Source of the DNA: a virus
Lineage: Duplodnaviria > Heunggongvirae > Uroviricota > Caudoviricetes
Length of the DNA: 7,410 bases
Virus record (IMG/VR): IMGVR_UViG_2600254985_000002
Coordinates: 1-7,410 of that record
Direction: 5' to 3' (one strand)
A program made the position numbers and the translations under genes. Position 1 is the stretch's first letter; each line of letters opens with the position of its first letter. Below are positions 1-7,410 of the stretch, piece by piece. The notes under the pieces were generated by a model, which saw only the letters and a program-made list of their open reading frames with translations, had not been told where the DNA came from and ran no database searches.

Positions 1-255
1 AAAGATGACGCTATAAGAGAAAAATTAAATAACGAACAACCCAAAACAACGGATGAAATAGAAAAACTTCGTCTTAAACAAGAACAAGTTTCTAAAAATA
101 TTATTAGAACTCAATCATTAGAAGAAGCGATTGTAACAGCTAATGAAATCGAACGCAAACTTAAAGAATGTGATTTAAAAAGCATGACAGACGAAGAAGC
201 CTTGAAAGAAATTGCTGATTTAGCTAATGAAATTGATTTATCTTGGTTCAAATAA
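1..255 (+). CDS. 3' end of a hypothetical protein (5'-truncated by window edge)
   Basis: Frame 1 is open from base 1 to TAA at 253..255 (…ADLANEIDLSWFK*). Charged, helical-looking C-terminus. Absent from the ORF track because it has no start codon in the window. No recognisable motif. Confidence 0.45.
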   Translation, partial: KDDAIREKLNNEQPKTTDEIEKLRLKQEQVSKNIIRTQSLEEAIVTANEIERKLKECDLKSMTDEEALKEIADLANEIDLSWFK

Positions 256-319
256 TATCTAAACGATTAAATCAAGATAGTATAAACAAATTCATAAAAG
301 AAAAAAATGGAATTAAGTA

Positions 320-348
320 TTGACAAATATAAAATAATTTGATATCAT
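320..348 (+). promoter_or_regulatory. sigma-A type promoter: TTGACA (320..325), 17-bp spacer, TGaTATCAT extended -10 (340..348)
   Basis: Read directly: consensus -35, 17-bp spacer, TG-extended -10, then GGAG RBS (361..364) and ATG at 371. Nearly identical to the promoter at 7045..7073. Confidence 0.6.
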
Positions 349-370
349 GATATAAGAAAAGGAGAAATAA

Positions 371-592
371 ATGAAAATTTACTATGTGGCACTAACAACT
401 GATAAAGACACAGTGGCTAAAAATTATAGCGGAAAACGATTATCTCTTTATACAAAAAAACACGAAGCTATTAAGACTTGTGTTTTATTAAATTATCAAT
501 GGGAGCTATTTTTCGGAAATGGAGCAAAAGAAGAAAAACCGTTCAAAGTTTATTGCGTAGAATCAGAGCCAATGGAGGTAACTAGTGACTAA
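371..592 (+). CDS. hypothetical small protein (73 aa)
   Basis: ATG start with GGAG RBS 7 nt upstream, immediately downstream of a consensus promoter. No recognisable motif. Confidence 0.6.
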   Translation: MKIYYVALTTDKDTVAKNYSGKRLSLYTKKHEAIKTCVLLNYQWELFFGNGAKEEKPFKVYCVESEPMEVTSD

Positions 593-660
593 ATTGAGAA
601 AAAACCAGGTGGCATTAGTCGTAGGATTAAAAAAAGATTATAAATTGAGAGGCATGAAAA

Positions 661-1554
661 TTGAATTTATTTGATAAAGTACAGACAGCTAAGCACTTAA
701 AAGAGCGTGAAGACTTAATAAATTTAAAAGATGACTGGCTTATTGATACGTTAATGCCAAGTTCACAAGCTGGAATACTTGTAGCTCCATTTAAGTCATT
801 TAAAAGCTCTCTAGCAATGCACATGGCTTTAATGGTATCGCAAGGGTTACCTTTTTTTGGTTATGATACAAAGCGAAGCAAGACACTATACATAGACAAT
901 GAAGATACTGACAGAGAGTTAAACAAAAGGCTTAGAAATAAAGATAATGCACCAGAAGACTTACATTTTTTGACAGGTGGAGAGTTTATGCTTGATGATT
1001 CGCACCACATGAACTTATTATATGAATACATTAAAGAAAATGATATAAAATTCGTGATCTTGGATAATTTAATGACAATGCTAAGAAATGGAGACATTAT
1101 CTACGGTAAAGACTTTGAACCAATGCTTAGGAGAATTACACGCTTAAAGTTACTTTTCCAAGACGTTACTTTCTTGTTAGTAGCTCATGCAAACAAATCA
1201 GCTTATGCAAACTCAATGGACGATAAAGCATATATGGTAAAGCCTAGTGACGCCTTGGGTGGTTCTACTCTAACAGCATGGGCAGAATTTATGTTAATGT
1301 TAAGCCCTAAACGTGGCAAGCATAACGACTTCTCTAAGTTATCAGTCAAAGCGCGTGGATATCAGTTTGACGATGATTTAAACTTTTCATACGTTGATTC
1401 AGTATTCACTTGCGTCAATAAATCAAAAAAAGAACCAGATAGCGAACTAGTGGAAAAAGTAAAGGCTGAAACTCCAATCGAAACGACGAAAGAATCGGCA
1501 CAGGCTTTCTTAGACTTAGCTAAAGAGAAAGGAAAAGTAACAGAAAATGAGTGA
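661..1554 (+). CDS. RecA-like P-loop NTPase (AAA_25 / DnaB-C-terminal-like); putative replication or recombination ATPase
   Basis: 297-aa ORF with TTG start and GAGAGG RBS (646..651). P-loop-like VAPFKSFKSS, Walker B-like KFVILDNL, and FLLVAHANK motif, in the spacing typical of RecA-fold helicase/recombinase cores. Family call is from motif layout by eye, not a search. Confidence 0.6.
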   Translation: MNLFDKVQTAKHLKEREDLINLKDDWLIDTLMPSSQAGILVAPFKSFKSSLAMHMALMVSQGLPFFGYDTKRSKTLYIDNEDTDRELNKRLRNKDNAPEDLHFLTGGEFMLDDSHHMNLLYEYIKENDIKFVILDNLMTMLRNGDIIYGKDFEPMLRRITRLKLLFQDVTFLLVAHANKSAYANSMDDKAYMVKPSDALGGSTLTAWAEFMLMLSPKRGKHNDFSKLSVKARGYQFDDDLNFSYVDSVFTCVNKSKKEPDSELVEKVKAETPIETTKESAQAFLDLAKEKGKVTENE

Positions 1555-1741
1555 TAAAAAATACGTTGTTTATTACCATGAAAAAGTAAATGAATACTTC
1601 TATGACTATTATTCAAGGTTTAACATGAATGAACAATATTCAAAACCTGTTTTATACAGTGATGACTTTAAATTAATAGAGAGAGCAAAAAATGAACTCA
1701 ATGAACGACTACAAGAACAAAGCTATTATTTTACACGCTGA
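1547..1741 (+). CDS. hypothetical small protein (64 aa)
   Basis: ATG overlaps the stop of the upstream gene (ATGAGTGA). Tyr-rich sequence, weak RBS. Shares 50 nt with the next ORF. Confidence 0.4.
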   Translation: MSDKKYVVYYHEKVNEYFYDYYSRFNMNEQYSKPVLYSDDFKLIERAKNELNERLQEQSYYFTR

Positions 1742-1958
1742 AGTGTACGGTTGGTTATATCGTGCATTAGATGAAATGGTAAAAGCAGAATGGCATAATG
1801 ACGAACTTTTCAAAGTATGGCTTGGACGTGCTGAATTTCTAGTCAGACAGTCGAAAAAATTGCATGCAGCTTGCGAAAATGATTATTCTAAGCGTGCATT
1901 GATTAGGGCATTACAATTAAAAGTAGAAATAAATAAAAAAATATCATCTAATATTTGA
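1692..1958 (+). CDS. hypothetical protein (88 aa; start may be the ATG at 1701)
   Basis: ORF with GAGAG-like RBS; protein-like composition (…AEVYGWLYRALDEMVKAEW…). Its stop TGA (1956..1958) sits inside the -35 of the next promoter. Confidence 0.5.
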   Translation: MNSMNDYKNKAIILHAEVYGWLYRALDEMVKAEWHNDELFKVWLGRAEFLVRQSKKLHAACENDYSKRALIRALQLKVEINKKISSNI

Positions 1959-1983
1959 CAACGATAATTAATTTTGGTATAAT
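1955..1983 (+). promoter_or_regulatory. sigma-A type promoter: TTGACA (1955..1960), 17 bp, TGgTATAAT (1975..1983)
   Basis: Perfect consensus -35 and -10 with TG extension, followed by a TATAGAAA element and AAGGAGAA RBS before ATG 2015. Confidence 0.65.
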
Positions 1984-2014
1984 AGTATATATAGAAATAA
2001 AGGAGAACTAACAA

Positions 2015-2401
2015 ATGGTAGTCAAATTAACGCAAAAACAAGCTGATTATCTTGAAACTTTTGGAAACCTTGAAGATGAAATAAACAAAAAACGAGCGCT
2101 TTGTCACATCACTCGTTTTGGTTATGGATACAATTGGATAGGCGGCGATAAATGTCCAAGTAGTGCTTTTGAGTGTTACGAGCAATTGAAAATGGTTGAA
2201 GCTGTCATTAACGGTTATGAAGTTATTGAACCTAAATTTAAGTTTTATAACTTTTCTGATAGTAGCGGAGGAACTGCATTATATTATGCTGGACAGTCTA
2301 AACAATTAACAAAATTCGAGCAAGATGCTCTTGAAGTTAAAGAGGGGAGCGAGGAATATAAAGCTTTGTTAGCTTTAGGTTTCGTTGAAGAAGAAGTATG
2401 A
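2015..2401 (+). CDS. hypothetical protein (128 aa)
   Basis: ATG with strong RBS downstream of a consensus promoter; acidic C-terminus. Stop overlaps the next start (ATGA at 2398..2401). Confidence 0.7.
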   Translation: MVVKLTQKQADYLETFGNLEDEINKKRALCHITRFGYGYNWIGGDKCPSSAFECYEQLKMVEAVINGYEVIEPKFKFYNFSDSSGGTALYYAGQSKQLTKFEQDALEVKEGSEEYKALLALGFVEEEV

Positions 2402-2685
2402 TAACATCTTTTGAATCACTAGCTGAAAGACGATCGATAACTCTTAATTATCACAAAAAGGATAGTCAGCAGTACATCAACAGCTTAAATTACTTTGAAT
2501 ATGCTAGAATGTACTTTGAAAAAAATGGCTTTCCTGATGATAACAGACGAGTTTATCAAAGTGGCAAGCGAAAAGGCCAAAAAGTTAGTTGGTCTGATAA
2601 AGAGGAAAAACAGCAGAAAGACGATATTAGAAAGTTCATATATGAAAAGCAACTACAAAAGTTTAAGGGCAGAAGAAAAAGCTAG
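2398..2685 (+). CDS. hypothetical protein (95 aa)
   Basis: ATGA coupling to the upstream gene supports the start. C-terminal half is Lys/Arg-rich and low-complexity, and it overlaps ORF 2495..2908 in another frame. Confidence 0.45.
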   Translation: MITSFESLAERRSITLNYHKKDSQQYINSLNYFEYARMYFEKNGFPDDNRRVYQSGKRKGQKVSWSDKEEKQQKDDIRKFIYEKQLQKFKGRRKS

Positions 2686-2908
2686 TAAACATTACGCTAG
2701 AGGTGTCAGAAAGCTATCTAAAGAGCTTGAGGAAATGAACGAAACAAAGTATAGGGCAGAGCCTAACGAGTGCTTATATGGCTTGATAAGCGAATTATGG
2801 AGCTATTGGGGTAAAGGTTGGATCCTGCCTATGCTTAAATATAATATTGAAATTACAAGACAAGGCGACGTCTTCATTGTAGAAAGAGGAGTAAATGGAA
2901 ACAATTAA
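2495..2908 (+). CDS. hypothetical protein (true start uncertain: TTG 2495, ATG 2642 or ATG 2735)
   Basis: The 3' part (…ECLYGLISELWSYWGKGWILPMLKYNIEITRQGDVFIVERG…) looks protein-like and its end is coupled to the next gene (ATG 2895 inside the last codons). The 5' part overlaps 2398..2685 by up to 190 nt. Confidence 0.4.
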   Translation: MNMLECTLKKMAFLMITDEFIKVASEKAKKLVGLIKRKNSRKTILESSYMKSNYKSLRAEEKASKHYARGVRKLSKELEEMNETKYRAEPNECLYGLISELWSYWGKGWILPMLKYNIEITRQGDVFIVERGVNGNN

Positions 2909-3191
2909 TATTAAATTTGATGAAAAACAGCTAGAAGAAGTTGTGAAAAAAGTTACTGAAAAACTTAAAAAAGAGAAAGATTCAGATACAGCAAAGGAAA
3001 AAGTGTCAGTAATGTATTTAGAATTTAATGAAGCAAATCATGCAAGCGAGAAAGGTAAACTTTACTTTGGGCATGCTTTTCACACTTTGTCAAAAAAGTA
3101 TGCTTCGGAGTTTTATTTATCTAGTGAATCTGATTTGACAAAAGCCTCAGAGCTTAAAAGCCAAGGTTGGAGAGAAGAGGTTATCGAATGA
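2895..3191 (+). CDS. hypothetical protein (98 aa)
   Basis: ATG with GAGGAG RBS (about 2884..2889). Stop TGA (3189..3191) overlaps the next ATG (3188). No recognisable motif. Confidence 0.6.
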   Translation: METINIKFDEKQLEEVVKKVTEKLKKEKDSDTAKEKVSVMYLEFNEANHASEKGKLYFGHAFHTLSKKYASEFYLSSESDLTKASELKSQGWREEVIE

Positions 3192-3754
3192 GTGTATTTG
3201 AAGAACTAAGCGTTATTAATGTAAATGATAAGAAAAGCAAAAAGAATAATTTAGATTATCTTAGTTGGGCATATGCATGGTCTGAAGTTAAAAAAGTATA
3301 TCCTGAAGCTAACAGTAAAGTTTATGAAAATGAACAAGGGTTAAATTATCACACAGACGGTCGCACAGCATGGGTTAAGGTTGGTATGACTATTGAGGGC
3401 TTGGAGCACATTGAATACTTGCCTGTAATGGACTATCGTAACCAATCTATCCCAGTTGAAAAACTGACTTCTATGGACGTAAATAAAGCCATTCAGCGTG
3501 GACTAGTTAAGGCAATTGCTCGTCATGGTTTAGGGCTATATATTTATGCAAATGAAGATTTACCAGTTCTAACAGAAGAACAAAAAGAGCTTGAAGCAGA
3601 AAAACAACGACTTAGAGAGATTCAGCCACTTATAAAACGAGCTGAACAACTAGGATACCAAAATATTGACAGCTTGAAAAATAAGACTAAAAAAGAAATT
3701 ACCGACATCATGAAGATTTGGTTAGCACAGCAAGAAACAGAAAAAGGGGAATAA
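3188..3754 (+). CDS. putative phage single-strand annealing / recombination protein (Sak3/DUF1071-like)
   Basis: Track ORF begins at 3167, but ATG 3188 has RBS GGAGAGAAGAGG and an ATGA overlap with the upstream stop. Motifs LDYLSWAYAWSEV and AIARHGLGLYIYANEDLP recalled as typical of this SSAP family; position immediately upstream of an SSB-like gene is the classic sak-ssb arrangement. Family assignment is from memory. Confidence 0.5.
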   Translation: MSVFEELSVINVNDKKSKKNNLDYLSWAYAWSEVKKVYPEANSKVYENEQGLNYHTDGRTAWVKVGMTIEGLEHIEYLPVMDYRNQSIPVEKLTSMDVNKAIQRGLVKAIARHGLGLYIYANEDLPVLTEEQKELEAEKQRLREIQPLIKRAEQLGYQNIDSLKNKTKKEITDIMKIWLAQQETEKGE

Positions 3755-3758
3755 TTAA

Positions 3759-4118
3759 ATGGCAATCATCACAGTAACAGCACAAGCGAATGAAAAAAAT
3801 ACACGTACAGTAAGTACAGCAAAAGGCGATAAGAAAATTATTTCAGTCCCATTATTTGAAAAAGAAAAGGGATCTAACGTAAAAGTTGCGTACGGTTCGG
3901 CTTTCTTGCCTGATTTCATTCAATTAGGTGACACAGTAACGGTCAGCGGTCGTGTACAAGCCAAGGAATCAGGAGAATACGTAAATTATAACTTTGTTTT
4001 CCCTACGGTTGAAAAAGTATTTATCACTGATGATAATAGTAGTCAATCACAAGCTAAACAAGACTTATTTGGTGGTTCTGAACCTGTTGAAGTTGATGAA
4101 TCAGAACTTCCTTTCTAG
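3759..4118 (+). CDS. ssb: single-stranded DNA-binding protein (phage SSB-like)
   Basis: 119 aa with strong RBS (AAAGGGGA). Gly/Gln-rich flexible region followed by acidic tail ending DESELPF, matching the SSB C-terminal acidic-tip pattern (D-D-D-I-P-F type). Sits directly after the putative annealing protein. Confidence 0.55.
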   Translation: MAIITVTAQANEKNTRTVSTAKGDKKIISVPLFEKEKGSNVKVAYGSAFLPDFIQLGDTVTVSGRVQAKESGEYVNYNFVFPTVEKVFITDDNSSQSQAKQDLFGGSEPVEVDESELPF

Positions 4119-4130
4119 AAAGGTGGTTAC

Positions 4131-4346
4131 ATGTACACAGAAGAAGAGAGAGAGCAAATTATCGACATCGTGGATAAAATGAGCTTATTAAGACAAGACT
4201 TTGACGGAGCTTTCGCTTGGATCAAGGAAAACGTATCAATGCCATTTGACTTTGACGGAGAACAGCAATTTATATCAGAATTGAAGCAGTTAGTTAAAAT
4301 TAACGCTTTAAAGTTTGGTAAAATATATGAGGGAGTATTAAATTGA
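4131..4346 (+). CDS. hypothetical acidic small protein (71 aa)
   Basis: ATG with AAGGTGG RBS. Stop overlaps the next start. Confidence 0.6.
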   Translation: MYTEEEREQIIDIVDKMSLLRQDFDGAFAWIKENVSMPFDFDGEQQFISELKQLVKINALKFGKIYEGVLN

Positions 4347-4852
4347 CAACATTAAGAGAGCTACACAAAAAACTTAAAATTAAACAAACGCTTGACAACT
4401 ATGTACGCAACACAAATAAAAAATATAAACATAACTTTGTGGCTGATGAAATTCTTGGCGAGGGAATGGCTAAACTGATCGAGCTTAATACACAAGGCAA
4501 ACTTGGACGACATGCACAGCAAATTGCTTATATTAACCATAATTTGAGCTTACAGCGACAAAAGGAACAACTGGAACAAGTTAACGAACGACTTGCTAAA
4601 CGTGCTGAGAAAGCCCAAAAATTGCTTGACACGGAACTTCTGAAAGATAGCTACATCGAAACGCTTGAAATGTTTAGTAAATACCATTCAGCAAAATATA
4701 ATATGTGGGACGAACCAGAAACTCCAACTAAAGTGATTGAGTTCATGGAAAAGAATGGAGTTAAACAAGGTAAATGGCTACGTCCTGAAGGAGTTGACGC
4801 TTGGTTCAAAGAACGAATCATTTGGTTCAAGAATAAATTGAAAGAACAATAA
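4343..4852 (+). CDS. hypothetical protein (169 aa)
   Basis: TTG start with GAGGGAG RBS (4329..4335), overlapping the upstream stop. Protein-like composition with a predicted helical, charged middle region. No diagnostic motif. Confidence 0.6.
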   Translation: MTTLRELHKKLKIKQTLDNYVRNTNKKYKHNFVADEILGEGMAKLIELNTQGKLGRHAQQIAYINHNLSLQRQKEQLEQVNERLAKRAEKAQKLLDTELLKDSYIETLEMFSKYHSAKYNMWDEPETPTKVIEFMEKNGVKQGKWLRPEGVDAWFKERIIWFKNKLKEQ

Positions 4853-4875
4853 TATTAAGAATAAAAACTTTAGGC

Positions 4876-4904
4876 TTGACAGCTTAGAGCTTTTTTGATA
4901 TAAT
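4876..4904 (+). promoter_or_regulatory. sigma-A type promoter: TTGACA (4876..4881), 17 bp, TGaTATAAT (4896..4904)
   Basis: Perfect consensus hexamers with TG extension, then a TATAG element and AAAGGAGG RBS before ATG 4937. Confidence 0.65.
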
Positions 4905-4936
4905 AATACATATAGTTAAAGAAAGGAGGTAATAAA

Positions 4937-5251
4937 ATGATTTTAATACAATGCGTAACCTGTGGGTCTTCAAGTTTCACTAATGGTAAATGTGATTATT
5001 GCGGTAACAAGTACGAAGTAAATGAAGACAAAATATTTTACGGCAATTCGAAAGAAGATGATTCATCATTAGATGAGGATATAACCTTTCAAGAAACTCC
5101 TGCTGGTAAATTAATACTAAAAATCATGATCTATACTTTAATATCTATTGTTTGGTTTGCGATAACTGTATTCATTCCACCGCTATTTATAATAACAATT
5201 ATTTTATTAGTAGTCTATGGGACTTATCGCTTGATAAATAAAAAGAAATAG
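4937..5251 (+). CDS. zinc-ribbon membrane protein (N-terminal CxxC…CxxC, two predicted TM helices)
   Basis: Translation has C-V-T-C … C-D-Y-C near the N-terminus, an acidic linker, two hydrophobic stretches (LILKIMIYTLISIVWFAITVF; PPLFIITIILLVVYGTY), then basic RLINKKK. Own consensus promoter and strong RBS. Confidence 0.7.
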   Translation: MILIQCVTCGSSSFTNGKCDYCGNKYEVNEDKIFYGNSKEDDSSLDEDITFQETPAGKLILKIMIYTLISIVWFAITVFIPPLFIITIILLVVYGTYRLINKKK

Positions 5252-5259
5252 CTTATAAT
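5231..5259 (+). promoter_or_regulatory. sigma-A type promoter: TTGATA (5231..5236), 17 bp, TATAAT (5254..5259)
   Basis: The -35 lies in the last codons of the upstream gene and the -10 just after its stop. Followed by TATAGAATAAA and AGAAAGG RBS before ATG 5289. Confidence 0.55.
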
Positions 5260-5288
5260 AAGGTATAGAATAAACTAGAAAGGTAACA

Positions 5289-5537
5289 ATGAAACAAAAA
5301 TACTTTAATGACAAAAGATATTGCCACTGCTTCGATATACCAATGAGTAATGGTTTAGGAGTTTGCAAAGATTGTAGAGGATACGTGAACATCTGTTATA
5401 GTTGCGATCGCTGTCTACACTGCTGGTTTACATCACAGGTTGAACTATTTACCGAATATGATGAACCTAAGTTGCTGGAACTTATAGAAAACTGGAATAA
5501 ATTTTACCAAACTAGAAAGACAATAAATAATGCTTAG
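5289..5537 (+). CDS. Cys-rich putative zinc-binding small protein (82 aa)
   Basis: Cys/His pattern C-H-C … CKDC … CYSC-x2-C-x-H-C within about 35 residues. Stop overlaps the methyltransferase start (ATGCTTAG). Confidence 0.6.
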   Translation: MKQKYFNDKRYCHCFDIPMSNGLGVCKDCRGYVNICYSCDRCLHCWFTSQVELFTEYDEPKLLELIENWNKFYQTRKTINNA

Positions 5538-6417
5538 TTTAGACGAGAAGAAAATCAGAAAAGGTAAACCTATTGGATTACCATACCAAGGAAGCAAGAA
5601 AAAGATAAGCAAGAAAATAGTTGAGATTATCAAACAGAACTTTGGCACAGACAAGCCGATATACGACATCTTCGGAGGAGGCGGAGCAATTACATCCGAA
5701 TGTATTTTAAATGGCTTAGAAGTATATTATAACGACTTAGACAAGGATATAACCAACGCTTTTGAACGAGTTATCTCTCAAGACCGTGAGTGGATTAAAA
5801 GCCTTATTGTTTCACGTACAGAGTTTACCGAGATTAAGGAGAAAGAAAACAAGACAACAGATGACTTTTTGAAGTTGCTGATTAACTCTTTCGGTAATAA
5901 AAAGAGAGATTATTTATATTCTAAAGAAATTTCAGATTTAAAATATAATCTAGCTAAAGAAATAATTGAAAAGCATGACGTTTTTAGTGGTTATAAACAG
6001 ACCAAAACATATAAGAGATCGATTGAAAAGTACAAACAACTTCAACAACTTCAACGACTTCAACAACTTGAACGACTTGAACAACTTCAACGAATTCAAC
6101 AACTTCAAAAATTAAATAAAATAAAAGCTACAAGCAAAAGTTATCATGCTTTTAGTGATGTTTCTGGAGCTATTCTATATCTTGACCCCCCTTATGAAGG
6201 AAGTCACCAAAAAGGTTATATTAATCAATTCGATAGTCAAGAGTTTTATGACTGGGCATTTGTAATGGCTAAAAATAACATCGTGATAATTTCAAGTTAT
6301 TCAATTTCAGATGAACGCTTTGAAGCTGTATATTCTTTTGACAAAGCGCGCAGCACTCTCCAAAGTGGAAGAAGCAAAAAAGAAAATGAGAAATTATTTA
6401 TGGTTAAAAACAGTTAA
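5530..6417 (+). CDS. N6-adenine DNA methyltransferase, D12/Dam-like (alpha-class motif order)
   Basis: N-terminal G-S-K-K-K-I region, FGGGGA AdoMet-binding motif (5671..5688), NDLDKDI block, and catalytic DPPY (6184..6195) in the order motif I … DPPY. Well-established family hallmarks. Confidence 0.85.
   Translation: MLSLDEKKIRKGKPIGLPYQGSKKKISKKIVEIIKQNFGTDKPIYDIFGGGGAITSECILNGLEVYYNDLDKDITNAFERVISQDREWIKSLIVSRTEFTEIKEKENKTTDDFLKLLINSFGNKKRDYLYSKEISDLKYNLAKEIIEKHDVFSGYKQTKTYKRSIEKYKQLQQLQRLQQLERLEQLQRIQQLQKLNKIKATSKSYHAFSDVSGAILYLDPPYEGSHQKGYINQFDSQEFYDWAFVMAKNNIVIISSYSISDERFEAVYSFDKARSTLQSGRSKKENEKLFMVKNS
6034..6114 (+). repeat. imperfect 9-bp tandem repeat (consensus CAACAACTT, about 9 units) inside the methyltransferase ORF
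   Basis: Units in order: aaacaactt, caacaactt, caacgactt, caacaactt, gaacgactt, gaacaactt, caacgaatt, caacaactt, caaaaatta. In frame, encoding KQL-QQL-QRL-QQL-ERL-EQL-QRI-QQL-QKL. Confidence 0.85.
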
Positions 6418-6420
6418 TAT

Positions 6421-6449
6421 TTGATAAAGTAAAAGCAATTTGATAGAAT
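6421..6449 (+). promoter_or_regulatory. sigma-A type promoter: TTGATA (6421..6426), 17 bp, TGaTAGAAT (6441..6449)
   Basis: Near-consensus hexamers with TG extension, followed by AGAGGAG RBS and ATG 6475. Confidence 0.55.
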
Positions 6450-6474
6450 AGAGTTATAAATAGAGGAGAACAAA

Positions 6475-6594
6475 ATGAAAGATACAGTAAAAACTTTAAT
6501 GATGGTTGCAGGTGTCGGCCTTACACTTATCGCTATCACTTGGATAGGTATGCTTGCGACGTTGCTTATTGCATGGATTGGGGGTAACATCTAA
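6475..6594 (+). CDS. small hydrophobic peptide (39 aa, single predicted TM helix), not in the supplied ORF track
   Basis: ATG 6475 with AGGAG RBS 7 nt upstream and its own promoter. Translation MKDTVKTLMMVAGVGLTLIAITWIGMLATLLIAWIGGNI. Stop TAA (6592..6594) overlaps the next ATG (TAATG). Confidence 0.5.
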   Translation: MKDTVKTLMMVAGVGLTLIAITWIGMLATLLIAWIGGNI

Positions 6595-6902
6595 TGAATT
6601 ATGGTACAAATAAGCACTATGCCAATGAATACGGTATGGAACTTAACGAATACTTTAAACATCATTTTAACTATGAAGAGCTTGCAGGCTGGTATACAAT
6701 GCAGGTATTAAAGTATCTAGTGAGAGCTGGCAAGAAAGAGGGTGAAAGCTACGACAAAGACCGTAACAAGGCTTTAGACTATGCAGGAGAACTTGCTAAC
6801 TTAAGTAACGAGAATAAGCTTACAGAATACACTGCTGACGACATTATGAGCTTTGCACAAGATATAGCTGATGATTTCAAACAATGGAAAGGCGAAGAAT
6901 AA
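6594..6902 (+). CDS. hypothetical phage protein, possibly DUF3310-like
   Basis: 102 aa, translationally coupled to the small peptide gene. Pattern NKHY … VLKYLVRAGKK … DKDRNKALDYAGEL resembles what I recall of DUF3310 phage proteins; family name is from memory. Confidence 0.55.
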   Translation: MNYGTNKHYANEYGMELNEYFKHHFNYEELAGWYTMQVLKYLVRAGKKEGESYDKDRNKALDYAGELANLSNENKLTEYTADDIMSFAQDIADDFKQWKGEE

Positions 6903-6921
6903 TTGAAAATAAAGTTTATGC

Positions 6922-6950
6922 TTGACAGTGTGAACTTTTTTTGATATTAT
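6922..6950 (+). promoter_or_regulatory. sigma-A type promoter: TTGACA (6922..6927), 17 bp, TGaTATTAT (6942..6950)
   Basis: Consensus -35, TG-extended -10, then TATAGAAATTAAGGAG. The ATG at 6978 opens only a 7-codon ORF (MENTMLN*). Confidence 0.5.
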
Positions 6951-7044
6951 AGTCTTATAGAAATTAAGGAGATACAAATGGAAAACACAATGTTAAATTG
7001 ATGAAAGATACTTGGAATTTATTGAAGAGGTCTAAAGTTAATTC

Positions 7045-7073
7045 TTGACAAATATAAAGTAATTTGATAATAT
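7045..7073 (+). promoter_or_regulatory. sigma-A type promoter: TTGACA (7045..7050), 17 bp, TGaTAATAT (7065..7073)
   Basis: Near-identical to 320..348 over the 29 bp from -35 to -10. Followed by TATAGAAAGGGG RBS and ATG 7099. Confidence 0.6.
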
Positions 7074-7098
7074 TGTTTTATAGAAAGGGGATTAAACA

Positions 7099-7353
7099 AT
7101 GGCAACACAAAAAGCTATAAAGGTCGTAGCTTATAACCCTACAACGGAAGAAGAACTACACTTCAGCAGTAAGGCTCAATGTGCTAAGTATTTTGGTCTT
7201 AAAACTAATACAGTCATCAGGTGGCTTGATAATGGTAGACCTGTAATTGAACTGCTGATAGACCTAGATAGAAATCAAGTAGAAATTGAAAAACAAAGCA
7301 AACTAAATGGCTTTGAATTATTTACGATTAAGGAGTGGTTAGATTATGTGTAA
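7099..7353 (+). CDS. hypothetical small protein, possible NUMOD1-like helix-turn-helix DNA-binding module
   Basis: 84 aa. Segment KVVAYNPTTEEELHFSSKAQCAKYFGLKTNTVIRWLDNGRP resembles the short DNA-binding modules found at the C-termini of homing endonucleases. No nuclease motif (GIY-YIG or HNH) seen. Motif call from memory. Confidence 0.55.
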   Translation: MATQKAIKVVAYNPTTEEELHFSSKAQCAKYFGLKTNTVIRWLDNGRPVIELLIDLDRNQVEIEKQSKLNGFELFTIKEWLDYV

Positions 7354-7410
7354 GAAACGCAAATACACAAAAATGGGTGCTTTATATTCAATAGCAAATG
7401 CACGGGATCG
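7346..7410 (+). CDS. 5' end of a hypothetical protein (3'-truncated by window edge)
   Basis: ATG 7346 with AGGAG RBS (7331..7335) about 10 nt upstream, overlapping the upstream stop (ATGTGTAA). Frame open to the window end (MCKKRKYTKMGALYSIANARD…). Confidence 0.35.
   Translation, partial: MCKKRKYTKMGALYSIANARD

Follow-up and report, generated by a model that had tools for sequence, protein, structure and literature searches.

T4 Imm and the lactococcal superinfection exclusion (Sie) proteins are small membrane proteins that act at the membrane of the infected or lysogenic cell, and Imm is an early product of a virulent phage. The p16.7 protein of phi29, a virulent phage of a Gram-positive host, is likewise membrane-bound, early and dispensable; it organises phage DNA replication, contains no zinc, and joins a single membrane helix at its N-terminus to a dimeric DNA-binding domain at its C-terminus. 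Class II holins and pinholins, such as S68 of phage 21, are small two-helix hairpins with both termini inside the cell (N-in/C-in) and a basic C-terminal tail. MgrB, SidA and SPO1 Gp56 are small regulators embedded in the membrane, which act on larger membrane proteins through contacts between helices, and bacterial N-terminal zinc-ribbon membrane proteins join a cytoplasmic C4 ribbon to membrane helices. Here, we compare with these systems a gene at positions 4937-5251 on the plus strand of a 7,410-nucleotide (nt) stretch of Caudoviricetes DNA (positions 1 to 7,410 of IMG/VR record IMGVR_UViG_2600254985_000002; hereafter, the window). The open reading frame (ORF) is intact, with an ATG start and 104 codons, and the encoded protein is MILIQCVTCGSSSFTNGKCDYCGNKYEVNEDKIFYGNSKEDDSSLDEDITFQETPAGKLILKIMIYTLISIVWFAITVFIPPLFIITIILLVVYGTYRLINKKK.

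The window represents the early region of a Lactococcus Skunavirus, a dairy phage with a strictly virulent lifestyle; as a whole it is 98.7% identical to Lactococcus phage BM22, and it matches 381 phage records, every one of them a Lactococcus Skunavirus (936 group). A full-length alignment of the protein (residues 1-104) to the profile of PHROG 1919 ("unknown function"; positions 1-105 of 105) has E=1.1e-60, and by tblastn the protein is 100% identical to a protein of phage RH13 and 87.6% identical to ORF31 of p2. Further homologues are ORF31 of sk1, with which it was aligned, LPPV008_34 of P008, and BM3_34, a "putative membrane protein". On these matches, the gene is assigned to the sk1/p2 ORF31 family, PHROG 1919, and is called ORF31 below. 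It is already catalogued, and the sk1 reference record annotates both sk1 ORF31 and promoter E3. These relatives occupy the same slot, mostly behind the same upstream promoter, and the window gene differs from the sk1/p2 family in its linker allele type and in nothing of substance.

The comparison with the other systems is one of design. There is no sequence similarity to Imm or Sie, neither of which has a zinc ribbon, and ORF31 would have essentially no extracellular part; further, the lactococcal Sie proteins are prophage-encoded, whereas ORF31 is encoded by a virulent phage. The likeness to p16.7 lies in the arrangement of a cytoplasmic binding domain, a linker and an anchor, without homology, and the ORF31 membrane segment is far more constrained than a p16.7-type anchor needs. 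Unlike the holins, ORF31 is located in the early region and not next to the endolysin gene, is predicted to have a long cytoplasmic zinc-ribbon N-terminus, and has no family match. The bacterial zinc-ribbon membrane proteins usually carry a large extracellular domain after a single helix, unlike ORF31, and the similarity to them is sub-threshold.

An accessory gene in a variable slot between two promoters

The slot that holds ORF31 contains the following elements, with base pairs abbreviated as bp.

4343-4852, plus strand: homologue of p2/sk1 ORF32 (PHROG 1317, function unassigned), the conserved left border of the variable slot
4868-4895, plus strand: 9-bp hairpin and T-run, overlapping the -35 box and spacer of E3
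4876-4904, plus strand: sigma-70-type early promoter, with TTGACA (4876-4881), a 17-nt spacer, TG (4896-4897) and TATAAT (4899-4904)
4923-4928, plus strand: ribosome-binding site AGGAGG, 8 nt upstream of the ATG; a GGAG-type site is kept in the homologues
4937-5251, plus strand: ORF31-family gene, 104 amino acids, between the ORF32 and ORF30 homologues
5231-5259, plus strand: second promoter-like site, TTGATA-17-TATAAT (11/12), with its -35 in the last ORF31 codons and its -10 just past the stop
5289-5537, plus strand: homologue of p2/sk1 ORF30, 82 amino acids with 8 cysteines, the conserved right border of the slot

ORF31 is an accessory gene that is dispensable in nature. It was found by tblastn in 309 phage records (with a query coverage of 80% or more in 301), compared with about 375 records that carry ORF32 at Skunavirus-level identity and the 381 that match the window. 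A survey of 80 IMG/VR loci seeded on ORF32, 78 of them usable, found it in 66. ORF31 is thus present in approximately 82-85% of Skunavirus genomes (309 of about 375-381 records; 66 of 78 loci), and about 15-18% of natural Skunaviruses, including 12 of the 78 loci, are without it. Moreover, it is cleanly deleted in sv66901, the working phage of PMC12184496, where the two promoters are joined at or beside their TATAAT boxes: the E3 -35 box, the spacer and a TATAAT lead straight into sequence that in sk1 lies past the TATAAT of the second promoter, and the leader of ORF30 comes next. A short gap of 82-98 nt between ORF32 and ORF30, as in sv66901, also occurs in five of the 12 loci without ORF31. 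The clean promoter-to-promoter deletion indicates that ORF31 is a cassette between two promoters, which can be lost by recombination between them.

The surroundings of the slot are stable and its contents are not. The order Sak-SSB-ORF33-ORF32-(insert)-ORF31 is conserved in Skunaviruses, with ORF30 downstream, and ORF31 lies on the same strand downstream of ORF32 in 65 loci; the exception, L060, seems rearranged or misassembled. Between ORF32 and ORF30, the slot is mosaic (loci L020-L099), and its alternative or additional cassettes encode 140-residue HNH endonucleases, a 36-residue single-helix membrane peptide, an acidic protein of 81-88 residues, and at least five different small cysteine-rich (zinc-finger-like) proteins. 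The 36-residue membrane peptide is the novel translated sk1 ORF detected by ribosome profiling (Ribo-seq), according to PMC10986495. ORF30 itself occurs in 74 of the 78 usable loci irrespective of ORF31, and because it persists where ORF31 is missing, the two genes are not an obligate pair; ORF30 was accordingly rejected as a conserved partner gene.

The promoter upstream of ORF31 matches the consensus at 12 of 12 positions and has an extended -10 element (TGa before TATAAT), in agreement with the TTGACA-17-TGaTATAAT promoter named in a sequence-only reading of the window. A scan with the pattern TTGACA-N14-TGnTATAAT, allowing at most one mismatch and taking the chance level from shuffles, located four extended -10 sites in the window, all on the plus strand (320-348, 1955-1983, 4876-4904 and 6922-6950), where 0.01 are expected, so that the promoter observation is not a chance one. 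The sk1 RefSeq record NC_001835 annotates seven early promoters, E1-E7, with E3 directly upstream of ORF31. The -35 and -10 elements of this "early promoter E3" align with window positions 4876-4904, at the same position after ORF32 and with the same hexamer positions and spacing; the sk1 -10 is TATACT, and that of the window is a perfect consensus. By this alignment, the promoter upstream of ORF31 is taken to correspond to E3. The sites at 320, 1955 and 6922 sit upstream of homologues of the genes that follow sk1 E2, E5 and E6, a correspondence that is based on position and unaligned. Overall, the early region in the window is divided into short units, each behind its own consensus promoter.

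Across the surveyed loci, E3 behaves as a property of the genome position. An E3-like promoter, defined by at least 10 of 12 matches, lies 23-27 nt past the ORF32 stop in 68 of the 78 loci, and it is kept in 10 of the 12 loci without ORF31. In the window, sk1 and p2, ORF31 comes directly after the promoter; in 40 of the 66 ORF31 loci, another gene, often the 140-residue HNH endonuclease, separates the two, and an E3-like promoter is present in 32 of these 40. At some of the insertion loci, where the start codon of ORF31 is GTG or its reading frame overlaps that of the inserted gene, ORF31 lacks a strong promoter of its own. Because the promoter is kept with or without ORF31, it belongs to the position and not to the gene. 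The view of ORF31 as a stand-alone gene with its own promoter is therefore correct for its placement in the window, sk1 and p2, but not for a promoter dedicated to the gene in the manner of a moron, since the site aligns with E3, is one of a promoter series, and is kept where ORF31 is missing. Nor does transcription appear to end with the gene: there is no terminator-like site after ORF31 in the window, so that E3 transcripts should run on into ORF30 and the methylase gene beyond it, and ORF30 is probably co-transcribed with ORF31.

The sk1 counterpart of the second promoter-like site (5231-5259) matches the consensus at 12 of 12 positions. The sk1 record places E4 about 65 nt further downstream of this site, inside the 36-residue ORF that is absent from the window. 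Besides the window, the observations on this site cover L016 (3497-3530, minus strand) and L019 (3311-3389, minus strand). The hairpin at 4868-4895 has a folding energy of -10 kcal/mol (z = -2.2) and is possibly a leaky terminator for upstream early transcripts. Its stem carries two mismatches in sk1, 56301, ASCC531 and 63302, and this disruption in several phages makes a function of the hairpin doubtful; a conserved terminator over the -35 box was rejected, as the structure is weakly stable and its stem is broken in several phages.

Judging from the sk1 early-gene class and the annotated E3, ORF31 would be expressed early. In PMC10986495, the sk1 early genes ORF21-50 form one Ribo-seq expression clade, and all but two of them are translated by 2 min after infection; ORF31 is not singled out in the text consulted.

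Selection on ORF31 and its predicted topology

The protein divides into four segments.

Residues 1-27: predicted zinc ribbon (C6, C9, C19, C22)
Residues 28-57: acidic variable linker
Residues 58-97: putative hydrophobic hairpin centred on Pro-Pro
Residues 98-104: basic tail

All 66 IMG/VR loci that carry ORF31 have it intact, and together they encode 54 distinct proteins. The ratio of nonsynonymous to synonymous substitution rates (dN/dS), pooled by the Nei-Gojobori method over 56 distinct ORF31 sequences, is 0.35 for the whole gene, which with the intact reading frames confirms that 4937-5251 is a real gene. The ratio differs sharply between segments.

Residues 2-27, zinc ribbon: dN/dS 0.23
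Residues 28-57, linker: dN/dS 0.66
Residues 58-93, hydrophobic hairpin: dN/dS 0.09
Residues 94-104, juxtamembrane residues and tail: dN/dS 0.99

ORF31 is under purifying selection, and this selection is strongest on the membrane hairpin. In particular, W73, T77, P81 and the LFIITI stretch (residues 83-88) are invariant among the 56 distinct sequences, the P81-P82 pair is essentially invariant, and the central proline of the hydrophobic run is kept down to 33% identity. Any hydrophobic hairpin would do as an anchor, yet the hairpin is the most constrained part of the protein, which argues against a passive anchor. The pattern of substitution points to a specific within-membrane contact that the hairpin would make, either with a conserved partner or with itself.

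At the N-terminus, four cysteines form the pattern C6-x2-C9-x9-C19-x2-C22 (CxxC-x9-CxxC). All four are invariant in 10 Skunavirus sequences and in 16 sequences down to 33% identity, and the knuckle G17-K-C-D-Y-C22 is essentially invariant. Because of these four invariant cysteines, a C4 zinc ribbon is the obvious reading of the predicted N-terminal fold. The match of ORF31 to the Pfam family Zn_ribbon_3 (PF13248) scores 13.7 bits (E=0.043), below the gathering threshold of 27, and 13 of 16 members of the ORF31 family match it weakly, the best with E=0.0052; further weak profile matches in the family are to Zn_ribbon_RRN7, RPB9 and LysW.

The hydrophobic run covers residues 59-97, a length of 39 residues, with a Kyte-Doolittle average of up to 2.8 and P81-P82 in mid-run. 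It is flanked by charges on both sides, K58 and K62 on one and R98 and K102-104 on the other. The run has twice the membrane-spanning length, its central Pro-Pro is invariant, and lysine or arginine stands at both ends; for these reasons, we infer an N-in/C-in helical hairpin with a cytoplasmic ribbon, linker and tail, and with nearly nothing outside the cell. Such a topology follows the positive-inside rule of membrane proteins, and proline is reportedly able to induce helical hairpins in hydrophobic stretches of about 40 residues, in work from the von Heijne laboratory.

The family has two unrelated versions of the acidic linker, which is variable in length; the window allele is of the type 'EVNEDK...DDSSLDEDITFQE' and not of the type 'ETETIFEEQKEQ'. 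Some records also differ at the start of the protein. The ORF31 homologues gp33 of 63302 (L001, 6883-7290), P0121 and P0123 are annotated with a 25-residue N-terminal extension (MYNTTFRERPPRTNAPMQPRNGEKK...), and the same peptide, MYNTTFRERPPRTNAPMQPRNGEKK, begins separate short ORFs upstream of ORF31 at other loci. The extension may be the remnant of an upstream ORF fused in frame rather than the true start.

The family is confined to Skunavirus-type phage sequence

The range of ORF31 was searched in 5.8 billion protein clusters, exhaustively in 1.84 billion representative proteins, and by tblastn in 50,697 phage records. All matching phage records are those of Lactococcus or Skunavirus phages. 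The representative proteins yielded 19 clusters, of which 12 were examined; all 12 have the ORF31 build and come from the same phage family. In the protein-cluster search, one cluster, P0002, carries the label Streptococcus pneumoniae, which also looks like contamination. The most distant relatives, P0135, P0138 and P0139 (33-42% identity), retain the motif MExxEC.TCG..F.N.KC.YCGN.Y, an acidic linker, a hydrophobic run that is about 40 residues long and has a proline at its centre, and a basic tail. Two of their three contigs carry AAA_25, ERF, Phage_SSB and gp38-like genes, and therefore come from Skunavirus-like phages; the third contig is only 1.3 kilobases (kb) long. On the two longer contigs, the ORF31-like gene lies 1.5-3.7 kb downstream of ERF/SSB, among unrelated small ORFs, and at L011 it is bracketed by perfect TTGACA-17-TATAAT promoters. 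A 65-residue acidic protein is encoded directly before the ORF31-like gene at L011 (5793-6315) and L013 (5788-6321), and the two versions are 49% identical; the pair may be a conserved two-gene cassette in that distant lineage.

Among 185,579 bacterial and archaeal genomes, eight matches were found. Four have 100% protein identity and DNA that is 99.8-99.9% identical to the window (386-7403 matched; L100-L103), in assemblies labelled Paenibacillus kribbensis, Staphylococcus pseudoxylosus, Staphylococcus caeli and Oceanibaculum pacificum. The Staphylococcus caeli contig, 31.5 kb long, is a whole phage genome. Two further matches have 77-78% protein identity and DNA that can also be aligned with the window, and the remaining two are motif-only. 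The presence of such nearly identical contigs in unrelated assemblies looks like Skunavirus contamination of genome projects, and the copies were rejected as prophages or host genes; the window may itself stem from a record of this kind. Overall, the phage, protein-cluster and 185,579-genome searches found no prophage or bacterial-gene homologue of ORF31, and the family is confined to Skunavirus-type phage sequence. Its homologues are phage-only and not housekeeping membrane proteins, the outcome that the sequence-only reading named as its refutation, and the comparison of synteny in related prophages that this reading suggested is without an object, as there is no prophage copy to compare and the phage is strictly virulent.

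Two marginal similarities were set aside. The sole PADLOC match, to PDC-S64, is not significant (E=0.018, 12 bits), and a similarity to the Hsp33 zinc knuckle through 'CDYCGN.Y' (E=0.44) was rejected as evidence, being at the level of a motif.

Proposed role and alternative explanations

We tentatively propose, as a possibility that we hold well short of conviction, that ORF31 is a small membrane adaptor or regulator with a dispensable role in host takeover or phage competition. Lacking a signal peptide, the protein would keep its N-terminal zinc ribbon and its acidic linker in the cytoplasm, the 39-residue run would bend at Pro-Pro into a hairpin, and the basic tail would return to the cytoplasm. 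The protein would insert into the host membrane within minutes of infection. There, the nearly invariant hairpin may dock onto a conserved membrane-embedded partner or self-assemble, and the tethered ribbon would be a small binding module on the cytoplasmic side, keeping a protein or nucleic acid at the membrane or bringing one there. Such a module could, for example, silence a membrane-associated host factor or defence, or exclude a second phage. On this favoured proposal, ORF31 would be neither a core replication protein nor a lysis protein.

Several results weigh against the adaptor proposal. The AlphaFold2 model, computed from a 16-sequence alignment as a monomer without a membrane, is weak overall (predicted local distance difference test, pLDDT, 68.5; predicted template modelling score, pTM, 0.31). 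It shows short ribbon strands at residues 4-6 and 27-29 (pLDDT 61-72), a disordered stretch at residues 31-53, and one continuous helix from residue 55 to 103 (pLDDT approximately 90) with no hairpin; as the model is of a membrane-less monomer, it counts only weakly against the hairpin. Further, self-assembly into a homo-oligomeric pore could explain the strong conservation of the hairpin equally well, and Pfam, NCBIfam, PADLOC, PDB profile and BFVD fold searches gave no significant match to a characterised protein. Literature searches found no functional study of p2 or sk1 ORF31. A set of 66 mutants that escape 13 lactococcal defence systems carried mutations in 15 phage genes (PMC12184496); ORF31 is not among them, and so has no link to a known defence. 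The architecture of a zinc ribbon and two transmembrane helices first proposed for the gene thus stands in its four invariant cysteines and in a 39-residue run whose length, Pro-Pro and flanking charges fit a hairpin, and falls short in its sub-threshold Pfam match and in the single AlphaFold2 helix.

It is doubtful, in our estimate, that ORF31 is the founding member of a new class of small phage membrane effectors, in which the hairpin would capture a host membrane protein while the ribbon sequesters or recruits a cytoplasmic partner, so as to exclude competitors or disarm the host. The captured protein could be, for example, a component of DNA entry or a membrane-bound defence or stress factor. 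We know of no characterised phage protein with the ORF31 architecture.

Superinfection exclusion by a virulent phage, in which ORF31 would alter the membrane site of DNA entry against later Skunaviruses in the manner of T4 Imm, would account for a protein that is early, predicted to be embedded in the membrane, dispensable and phage-restricted. Many Skunaviruses co-occur in dairy samples, and many of the 80 loci come from the same metagenomes; moreover, lactococcal prophages encode Sie systems (cited in PMC13064643). Sie proteins act against the injection of Skunavirus DNA, which demonstrates a membrane step of this kind. The hairpin topology, however, would leave almost nothing outside the cell and the bulk of the protein in the cytoplasm, ORF31 resembles no Sie or defence model in Pfam, NCBIfam or PADLOC, and its outward-facing turn is invariant, with no sign of an arms race, whereas the variable residues are cytoplasmic. 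This explanation is consequently judged unlikely. The abortive-infection-like or membrane-sensor function raised in the sequence-only reading has in its favour only the architecture, a membrane anchor with a small cytoplasmic domain. Against it, ORF31 belongs to a phage that is strictly virulent and that expresses the gene early in its own lytic cycle; no copy was found in a prophage or among bacterial genes, those in bacterial assemblies being contaminating phage contigs; and ORF31 has no significant PADLOC match. The virulent lifestyle means that neither this idea nor the prophage comparison applies, and such a function is extremely unlikely.

The remaining alternatives place ORF31 in replication or in lysis. 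As a membrane tether for phage replication or recombination, similar to phi29 p16.7, its ribbon would bind DNA or one of Sak, SSB and the AAA ATPase. The conserved order from Sak to ORF31 and the design of a cytoplasmic domain, flexible linker and anchor fit this function, zinc ribbons commonly bind nucleic acids or polymerase-type partners, and the weak profile matches to Zn_ribbon_RRN7, RPB9 and LysW are in line with it. A simple anchor should nevertheless tolerate hydrophobic substitutions, which the dN/dS of 0.09 does not indicate; the 15-18% of phages without ORF31 keep their replication genes; the gene lies 1.5-3.7 kb from ERF/SSB in the distant relatives; a promoter separates it from the upstream replication operon; and the acidic linker disfavours DNA binding nearby. 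We consider a replication tether quite unlikely. The initial statement that ORF31 is not a replication function thus holds in the sense that it is not a core one, given its absence from many Skunaviruses, its deletion in sv66901 and its distance from the recombinase and SSB genes in the distant relatives, but the architecture on which that statement was based cannot by itself show it: p16.7 of phi29 is also an early membrane protein, and it organises replication. A pore-forming or lysis-timing role, in which ORF31 would depolarise the membrane or tune lysis either as a class II holin or pinholin or as an antiholin, would draw on the holin hallmarks of small size, an N-in/C-in two-helix hairpin and a basic C-terminal tail; further, Y66, S70, W73 and T77 are spaced to share one helical face, and the extreme conservation of the membrane segment fits self-assembly. 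ORF31 lies on the early strand of the early region, behind E3, however, several kb from the endolysin gene (ORF20), which in sk1 and p2 is beyond the far end of that region. A pore formed early would kill the host before the phage could replicate, holins do not typically have a 58-residue N-terminal domain in the cytoplasm, and there is no match to a holin family in Pfam or PHROG, all of which makes a role in lysis very unlikely.

Neighbouring genes of the early region

Other genes of the window are listed below.

661-1554: AAA_25 ATPase gene, in the early region of the window
2895-3191, plus strand: gene for a 98-residue protein, upstream of sak
3167-3754: gene for the Sak single-strand annealing protein
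3759-4118: phage SSB gene
4131-4346: gene for a gp38-like protein
5530-6417, plus strand: orphan Dam-type methylase gene
6594-6902: gene for a DUF3310 protein

Both RefSeq and PHROG 1825 call the ORF30 homologue a 'DNA methyltransferase', and the protein has no Pfam or NCBIfam match. It is also present in p2 and sk1, where the region has no annotated Dam methylase. The name was probably carried over from the adjacent methylase, and the ORF30 product looks like a small zinc-binding protein with two predicted sites. The Dam-type methylase itself contains a Gln/Leu-rich segment of low complexity, KQLQQLQRLQQLERLEQLQRIQQLQKL, at residues ~178-205, where sv66901 has a different sequence; the segment appears to be a variable insert inside the enzyme.

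The 98-residue protein encoded at 2895-3191 is 88% identical to sk1p35 of PP906167. Its homologue in phage 63302 is called a 'putative HNH endonuclease' in RefSeq, and no such domain was seen here. The AbiB escape gene named 'sk1_ORF35' (PMC12184496), which encodes a hypothetical protein, was considered as ORF31 and rejected, since the ORF31 homologue bears the name sk1p30 in the sk1 record of that study; 'sk1_ORF35' is most probably sk1p35, the gene upstream of sak that corresponds to window positions 2895-3191.

Implications for Skunaviruses

As a genome feature, ORF31 is ordinary: the gene and the homologous promoter are annotated in sk1, and hundreds of sequenced phages carry the gene. What is new here is that the promoter is positional, that ORF31 is a two-promoter cassette lost by promoter-to-promoter deletion, that selection is focused on the predicted hairpin, and that the family is restricted to Skunavirus-type phages. 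Skunaviruses are the leading cause of phage-related failures of cheese fermentation, and their non-structural proteins are mostly uncharacterised, including most early proteins, which have no assigned function (PMC7472136). ORF31 is among the few predicted early membrane proteins of these phages, and because it is constrained yet optional, it is a reasonable candidate for a role in host takeover or phage competition.

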